Assembly (NCBI GenBank): GCA_963536495.1
Contig: CAUTAF010000003.1
Coordinates: 6,582 to 70,581 of the forward strand
From: an uncultured Eubacteriales bacterium
Lineage (GTDB): Bacteria; Bacillota_I; Bacilli_A; RF39; UBA660
DNA: 64,000 nt
Direction: 5' to 3'
Shown here in pieces: positions 62,818-62,899 of the stretch. The notes beneath the pieces are model-generated. The model was not told the origin of the DNA, searched no databases, and saw only the letters and a list, made by a program, of their open reading frames with translations. Each line of letters starts with the position of its first letter. The stretch's first letter is position 1. Made by a program: the position numbers and the translations under genes.

Positions 62818-62838
62818 AACGACCTCTATTATCTATAT

Positions 62839-62857
62839 TATATATATATATATATAT
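62839..62857. repeat. (TA)9-10 dinucleotide tract in the promoter of the LRR surface-protein gene
   Basis: tatatatatatatatatat lies between a TTGCAT -35-like hexamer (revcomp 62856-62861) and the RBS/ATG at 62817. Confidence 0.85.
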
Positions 62858-62867
62858 GCAAGATGCA

Positions 62868-62898
62868 AGAAAAAGATAAAGTTAATTTTTAACTTTAT
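62868..62898 (-). terminator. Intrinsic terminator after the helical-repeat gene
   Basis: aagataaagttaa-ttt-ttaactttatctt: a perfect 13-bp inverted repeat with a T-run. Confidence 0.65.
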
Positions 62899-62899
62899 C

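Follow-up and report, generated by a model that had tools for sequence, protein, structure and literature searches.

A length-variable TA repeat in the putative promoter of a leucine-rich repeat surface-protein gene: a candidate phase-variation switch in an uncultured low-G+C bacterium

A pure TA dinucleotide repeat lies directly upstream of a gene for a 1005-amino-acid (aa) leucine-rich repeat (LRR) protein in a 64,000-nucleotide (nt) stretch of contig CAUTAF010000003.1 from an uncultured Eubacteriales bacterium; the whole of this stretch, positions 1 to 64000, is referred to below as the window. The repeat varies among strains in 2-bp steps, is bounded on one side by duplicated -35-like hexamers and on the other by a perfect -10 hexamer, and recurs in a similar setting at two paralogous LRR genes. 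It is a well-supported candidate, from sequence comparisons, for the known class of simple-sequence repeat (SSR) promoter switches, and on balance it is probable that the TA-tract promoter acts as a real expression switch or volume control. From the arrangement of these elements and their variation among strains, we infer the identity of the promoter, its transcription start, an effect of the number of AT units (n) on expression, and switching within populations.

Architecture of the TA Tract

The tract lies in an 82-nt intergenic region between the upstream gene, whose TAA stop ends at 62900, and the ATG at 62817. Read along the - strand, the order of elements is a hairpin with a T-run, CTTGCAT CTTGCAT, (AT)9, AATATAGATAAT, AGAGG, TCGTT and ATG, and the sequence of this coding strand is cTTGCATcTTGC(AT)9AATATAGATAATAGAGGtcgttATG. 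The individual features are the following.

62839..62857, - strand: (TA)9.5 / (AT)9 SSR, a 19-nt uninterrupted alternating run; putative promoter spacer
62856..62861, - strand: proximal TTGCAT, a -35-like hexamer whose terminal AT doubles as the first unit of the tract
62863..62868, - strand: distal TTGCAT, in the other copy of the 7-nt tandem unit CTTGCAT; alternative -35, offset by 7 nt
62837..62842, - strand: TATAAT, a perfect -10 hexamer formed by the closing TAT of the tract plus AAT
62823..62827, - strand: AGAGG ribosome-binding site (RBS), followed by TCGTT (5 nt) and the ATG at 62817-62815
62870..62900, - strand: intrinsic-terminator-like hairpin of the upstream gene, with a 12-bp stem (AGAUAAAGUUAA/UUAACUUUAUCU), the loop AAA and then a UUUU run

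A preliminary description of this DNA had reported an uninterrupted (TA)9.5 run upstream of the LRR gene, a tandem duplication of TTGCAT and an RBS after the tract, all of which proved accurate at the positions listed, and had called the run the only long dinucleotide repeat in the window. The last statement also holds, as the (TA)9.5 run is the longest dinucleotide run in the 64-kb window and the runners-up measure 11 and 10 nt. Under a first-order Markov model of the 77% A+T window, runs of at least 19 nt are expected 4.7e-4 times per 64 kb, and the longest run encountered across 100 simulated windows was 16 nt. With 9.5 units, the run also exceeds the approximately 8 that suffice for slippage.

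The hairpin that separates the upstream gene from the tract looks like the terminator of that gene. Its arms on the - strand (AGATAAAGTTAA-AAA-TTAACTTTATCT) are followed by TTTT, and its minimum free energy of -13.9 kcal/mol (z = -4.75) was matched by none of 200 shuffled sequences. The stem is AT-rich with almost no G-C pairs, which is atypical for a Rho-independent terminator, and for this reason the hairpin escaped a consensus scan that demands at least 3 G-C pairs and called no terminator in the intergenic region. Two strains (L022 and L026) carry a 1-base deletion (AAAAA to AAAA) across the terminator loop, equivalent to window positions 62886-62888, and this is the only intergenic indel besides those of the tract.

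Because the tract sits between the terminator and the RBS, the 82-nt region has no space for a second promoter. An Rfam search of 62600-63100 matched no RNA family, leaving a riboswitch or leader-RNA reading without support. Two other sequences were considered as the -10 element. GATAAT (62833-62828) was rejected, as it lies immediately next to the RBS, which would be absent from any transcript initiated downstream of it; TATAGA is a weak candidate, being deprived of the final T and replaced by TAAAGA in L012 and L029.

Tract-Length Variation Among Strains

Sequences of the same locus, designated locus A, were retrieved through exact matches to the Impact_N and transglutaminase-like proteins encoded next to it. 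This yielded approximately 20 contigs from different human samples (VALL22-1, HMPC12-1 and others), all of them metagenome contigs, among which 15 share the left flank of the window and together with it form a set of 16 locus A sequences. The flanks are nearly identical throughout this set, and the terminator, the two TTGCAT hexamers, TATAAT and the RBS are all conserved. Tract length was distributed as follows.

n = 8: 3 of 16 sequences
n = 9: 5 of 16, the window and L001 among them
n = 10: 4 of 16
n = 13: 1 of 16
n = 15: 1 of 16 (L014)
tract broken by one T: 2 of 16, one AT unit apart

The preliminary description had proposed a comparison of tract length among strains as the check on its reading, and had named invariance across isolates as the outcome that would speak against it. 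The tract was instead found to range from 8 to 15 units in 2-bp steps between near-identical flanks. L013 and L019, obtained from different samples, align over 11,185 bp with 99.8% identity: their 18 mismatches all fall within the LRR gene, and the sole indel over the entire distance is one AT unit of the tract. As a control, the 7.3-kb downstream flank was compared in 11 strains. It contained 248 variable columns (single-nucleotide polymorphisms, SNPs) and one indel event, and neither the 16 homopolymers of at least 7 nt nor the two (AT)4 runs varied in length. A close strain that was assembled independently (L001, 2 mismatches in the gene) has n = 9, as does the window. The tract is thus a true hot spot of indels, the only one in the neighbourhood, and its changes by 2 bp at a time are those that slipped-strand mispairing should produce.

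Several contigs (L024, L025, L041 and L042) end within the LRR gene, as would be expected if the conserved ends shared by the paralogs led to breaks in assembly. Surveys of tract length that are drawn from assemblies will therefore undersample the locus.

Recurrence of the Cassette at Paralogous Loci

The species has paralogous LRR genes elsewhere on the chromosome, in three other gene contexts, with the same 5' arrangement or part of it.

Locus B: LytR_cpsA_psr - LRR - NUDIX; terminator T-run, TTGCAT, (AT)n, AATATAAT..AATAGAGG; n = 11 (L030) and 13, 12, 11 (L036-L038)
Locus C: PmbA/TldD - 412 aa - LRR - ftsY; TTGAAT-(AT)n; n = 6 with interruptions (L002) and n = 8 (L031)
Locus D: PEMT - LRR - 835 aa; without tract and without TTG hexamer, keeps TATAATATAGATAATAGAGG

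The encoded protein (P0109) is identical in the three locus B contigs L036-L038, which are separated by 1-10 mismatches across 7-8 kb, yet they have n = 13, 12 and 11. The element AATAGAGG is conserved across all paralog loci. TATAAT is likewise conserved at all four and is retained, followed by ATAGATAATAGAGG, even at the tract-less locus D, so that promoter homology among the paralogs begins at TATAAT, which supports this hexamer as the real -10 element. At the opposite edge, TTG(C/A)AT abuts the 5' end of the tract in three loci whose upstream sequences are unrelated, a recurrence that is notable for a genome of approximately 23% G+C. The distal TTGCAT is present in all 16 locus A sequences that have the 645-aa gene upstream; L023 and locus B possess a single hexamer. 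In L016 the 3' cassette is of the locus B/C type.

Spacer Lengths and Predicted Promoter States

The distance to TATAAT follows from n as 2n-5 nt for the proximal hexamer and 2n+2 nt for the distal one. With n = 9, the window has spacers of 13 nt (proximal) and 20 nt (distal), and for its copy of the gene the prediction is weak transcription or an off state. The preliminary description had assigned the tract to the -35/-10 spacer; the perfect TATAAT at its edge agrees with that assignment, with the correction that the spacings in the window fall outside 16-18 nt. At locus A, a spacing of 16-18 nt would be reached with n = 7 (16 nt) or 8 (18 nt) through the distal hexamer and with n = 11 (17 nt) through the proximal one. 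Among the observed states, it is found at locus A with n = 8 (18 nt), at locus B with n = 11 (17 nt), at locus C in L002 (17 nt) and L031 (16 nt), and also in L028 (17 nt). The remaining lengths, n = 9, 10, 13 and 15 at locus A and n = 12 and 13 at locus B, give off-range spacings of 11-15 or 19-32 nt.

Where both loci could be read from one source, their predicted states were mixed.

SAMEA10740233: locus A off (n = 15, frameshifted); locus B 17 nt
ERZ27319313: locus A 17 nt; locus B 19 nt
SAMEA10740718: locus A out of range; locus B out of range

Mixtures of predicted on and off states are expected of a stochastic multi-gene switch and are also expected of neutral drift, and these combinations are suggestive rather than probative.

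Proposed Mechanism and Alternative Explanations

In the mechanism that we favour, (TA)n would be a hypermutable repeat making up the entire spacer of a sigma-A-type promoter that belongs to the LRR gene itself, in which a TTG-containing -35-like hexamer (two of them, 7 nt apart) is fixed 5' of the tract and TATAAT is fixed 3' of it. Slipped-strand mispairing during replication would add or remove AT units and thereby shift the -35/-10 distance by 2 bp per step, so that promoter strength, and hence the amount of sortase-anchored LRR protein, may switch stochastically and reversibly. Since the same cassette is found at two paralogous LRR genes, the organism probably varies which members of the LRR family are displayed. 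A more elaborate version of this mechanism can be offered only tentatively: at least three independently slipping TA promoters might generate a combinatorial, stochastic repertoire of LRR adhesins anchored by sortase, and the duplicated -35 might be an adaptation that provides two interleaved spacing series (odd for the proximal hexamer, even for the distal) and, thus, several expression levels in place of a plain on/off choice.

Several observations weigh against a spacing-dependent switch. TTGCAT agrees with the -35 consensus TTGACA at 3 of 6 positions (TTG), and because of this partial match and the 13/20-nt spacing, a consensus scan called no promoter with a 16-18-nt spacer here. Eleven of the 16 locus A sequences have no 16-18-nt spacing, which fits a gene that is mostly off or, equally, a promoter for which spacing is irrelevant. 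The distribution of n is not clearly distinct from that expected under neutral drift. In addition, A/T-rich, TATAAT-like elements are common in a genome of 78% A+T, and a promoter dominated by its -10 element could ignore the spacer altogether. These points lead to the most serious alternative, which we consider rather unlikely, that the tract is a neutral AT microsatellite in AT-rich intergenic DNA, spread by gene conversion of the 5' cassette and having no meaningful effect on expression, with transcription driven by TATAAT and showing little dependence on a -35 element. Apart from the poor hexamer match and the negative promoter scan, this explanation gains from the fact that most locus A lengths (9, 10, 13, 15) miss the 16-18-nt range, yet most strains with these lengths have an intact gene. 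It gains also from the exchange of 5' ends between paralogous loci, as in L016, since the recurrence of the cassette could then reflect conversion and not selection. Neutrality does not readily account, however, for pure tracts of 8-15 units that persist at three loci in many strains without decay by interruption, or for the fact that the tract is met precisely by the G/C-containing TTG(C/A)AT at its 5' edge, in three unrelated contexts, and by a perfect TATAAT at its 3' edge, and the architecture as a whole matches that of experimentally proven switches.

Two further explanations concern the position of the tract and the quality of the data. The tract might lie in a transcribed leader or intercistronic region that is served by an upstream promoter through read-through of a weak hairpin, in which case the self-complementary (AU)n would act, if at all, via RNA stability or translation. 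The 645-aa gene is indeed on the same strand and 82 nt away, and a hairpin that has no G-C-rich stem may leak. Such an arrangement is nevertheless improbable, as the hairpin and U-run fold far better than shuffled sequences, (AU)n does not pair with the RBS, and the upstream genes differ at loci B, C and A* (L010, L023), where each has its own terminator-like T-run; because it follows differing upstream genes, the cassette behaves as an autonomous unit. Finally, length differences could arise as artefacts of assembly or sequencing, through polymerase chain reaction stutter or mis-assembly in short-read metagenomes, a concern raised by the fact that the comparison sequences are all metagenome contigs and that many of them break in the neighbouring LRR gene. 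This we regard as very improbable: tracts of 16-30 bp are far below read and assembler k-mer length, the differences reach 7 units, the flanks agree between contigs of two assembler naming styles, the other repeats in the 7.3-kb flank are length-stable, and the independent assembly L001 arrived at the same n as the window.

The Surface-Protein Gene and Its Surroundings

The two genes that border the intergenic region are as follows.

59800..62817, - strand: surface-protein gene, 1005 aa; N-terminal signal/anchor, LRR repeats, Rib-like and TSP3-like segments, coiled-coil region, sorting signal
62900..64000, - strand: upstream gene, 3' portion; full-length contigs give 645 aa; no family match; extends beyond the window edge

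The 1005-aa product is predicted to be a surface-exposed, sortase-anchored LRR protein. Its basic and hydrophobic N-terminus suggests a signal peptide or anchor, and it contains a long charged coiled-coil-like region. The C-terminus consists of NPNTG, a hydrophobic stretch and KKKKK, which we take to be the layout of a sortase sorting signal; the NPxTG motif, rather than LPXTG, presumably resembles that of class B sortase substrates. Residues N972, P973, T975 and G976 of this motif are unchanged in 31 of 31 homologs. The Pfam family LRR_4 matched with 32.9 bits against a cut-off of 27, the Rib and TSP3_bac matches were below the Pfam cut-offs, and no internalin-specific domain was reported in the Pfam search. 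The preliminary description had placed the repeat at the gene of an LRR/TSP3 surface protein. The signal/anchor, LRR_4 match and NPNTG sorting signal agree with a surface protein of the LRR type, and the TSP3 part of the label corresponds to a match below the cut-off.

Homologs are abundant, with 294 matches in European Nucleotide Archive (ENA) human metagenome assemblies, and are conserved in the N-terminal region and the C-terminal half, while the LRR part differs in sequence and length. The gene is accordingly hypervariable between strains, with products of 968 to 1145 aa (L010-L029). In the comparison of L013 with L019, 17 of the 18 SNPs fall within approximately 700 bp of the LRR gene, a cluster that resembles a patch brought in from a paralog by recombination or gene conversion. 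A further contig (L027:4023-9013) has the 5' flank of locus D (adenylosuccinate synthase, PEMT) fused to the 3' flank of locus A (the transglutaminase-like gene), and these hybrid flanks imply recombination between paralogs.

Frameshifted LRR alleles were observed in two strains (L014:1993-5011 and L017:2104-5011). One frameshift was caused by a 7-nt tandem duplication (GATCAAT GATCAAT) and the other lies at an A8 run, where a close intact allele (L010) reads AAGAAAA. The LRR gene is thus inactive in some populations, and such events may be a second way of losing expression, through the coding region. There was no usable correlation between tract length and gene integrity, with frameshifts at n = 15 (L014) and at n = 9 (L017).

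The left side of the locus is also variable. In L010 (1-2105) and L023 the 645-aa gene is absent, and rpsD, a PP-loop ATPase gene and a Zn-ribbon gene are found on the left instead. Beyond position 64000 of the window (L001:1-436; L017:1-15), a gene for a 1021-aa LRR_8/Rib-like protein lies upstream of the 645-aa gene. The presence of this second large LRR_8/Rib-like gene nearby marks the region as a surface-protein gene cluster.

The Window and Its Source Organism

The window is ordinary chromosomal DNA that includes ileS, valS, aspS, serS, pnp, tkt and rpsO, has a G+C content of 19-28% and uses the standard genetic code. Its source organism is of Clostridiales type, prevalent, uncultured, very low in G+C and human-associated; the exact S15 sequence of the window occurs on 220 contigs. 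Nearly all genes of at least 150 aa in positions 1-64000 are on the - strand, and the GC skew is uniformly negative (approximately -0.3), except for 56-60 kb, where two genes are on the + strand. Such strand bias is typical of low-GC Firmicutes replichores. Two long open reading frames (ORFs) gave no Pfam or NCBIfam match, namely a 1340-aa ORF at 36488-40510 (-) and a 664-aa ORF at 18442-20436 (-). The only homopolymers of at least 9 nt in the window are T10 at 49522-49531 and T9 at 21756-21764.

Exact look-ups of the window's LRR protein and of a 460-aa deacetylase returned no record, and an exact scan for the promoter pattern in GTDB representative genomes gave no match. A protein-pattern scan of the GTDB representatives recovered only two distant (24-27%) relatives, in an 'uncultured Eubacteriales' metagenome-assembled genome, and both are tract-less; from these two scans, the species is absent from the GTDB representatives. 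A scan of JGI metagenomes recovered five relatives at 44-47%; three of these five include the gene start, which is preceded by ordinary AT-rich sequence with no tract. The absence of the tract from these upstream regions indicates that it is specific to the close family.

Comparison with Known Phase-Variation Systems

In Haemophilus and Mycoplasma, TA repeats in promoter spacers are a textbook means of phase variation, and phase variation in Clostridia has so far been described mainly via invertible elements. Studies of phase variation across human-microbiome metagenomes have focused on invertible promoters and on methylation, and our literature searches turned up no account of promoter switches with dinucleotide repeats in Clostridia. 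If the more elaborate version of the mechanism is true, the LRR loci would constitute an SSR-based multi-gene surface-variation system in Clostridia. If the favoured mechanism is confirmed, tract lengths in metagenomes would provide a per-sample record of which adhesins are switched on, and the dynamics of host interaction or phage evasion in an uncultured organism would become testable without culture.

One close parallel is the hifA/hifB region of H. influenzae, in which (TA)9-11 lies between promoter elements (van Ham et al., 1993, as summarised in PMC2651432). Both systems have a pure TA repeat of approximately 9-11 units, at the -35/-10 spacer of an adhesin gene in hif and at the putative spacer of a surface-protein gene here, and a repeat length that varies among strains. 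The alteration of spacing by 2-bp slippage, and hence of adhesin transcription, is proven for hifA/hifB and is what we infer here. The hif tract serves two divergent overlapping promoters in a Gram-negative organism, whereas the present tract points in one direction and has a duplicated -35-like hexamer. Unlike hif, moreover, the gene encodes an LRR protein of Gram-positive type, with a sortase signal, and the cassette is found at three paralogous loci.

A second parallel is provided by Mycoplasma mycoides. Insertions and deletions of TA in the vmm promoter switch a surface protein on and off (Persson et al., 2002, as cited in PMC2628566 and PMC3053259), and in M. mycoides subsp. capri poly-TA tracts with n = 10-16 precede several lipoprotein genes (PMC3053259; PMC2628566). 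The likeness lies in a very AT-rich relative of the Firmicutes with several surface-protein genes, each of which has its own poly-TA tract of differing n. The Vmm-type products are small lipoproteins of wall-less Mollicutes, whereas those described here are LRR proteins of approximately 1000 aa with cell-wall sorting signals, from a Clostridiales-type organism with the standard code.

A third precedent, from a Gram-positive bacterium, is the R28 protein (Spy1336) of S. pyogenes M28, for which the length of an intergenic poly-T tract sets the transcript level and is polymorphic in natural strains (PMC7098570). R28 is similarly an LPXTG-anchored, Rib-type repeat surface protein with a simple repeat upstream, and its size varies via internal repeats. 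Its repeat is a mononucleotide that works together with a divergent regulator gene and has no role as a -35/-10 spacer, in contrast to the dinucleotide spacer proposed here. The TA tract of the LRR locus is set apart from all of these precedents by its tandem -35-like box, by the multi-locus LRR family to which it belongs and by its host lineage.
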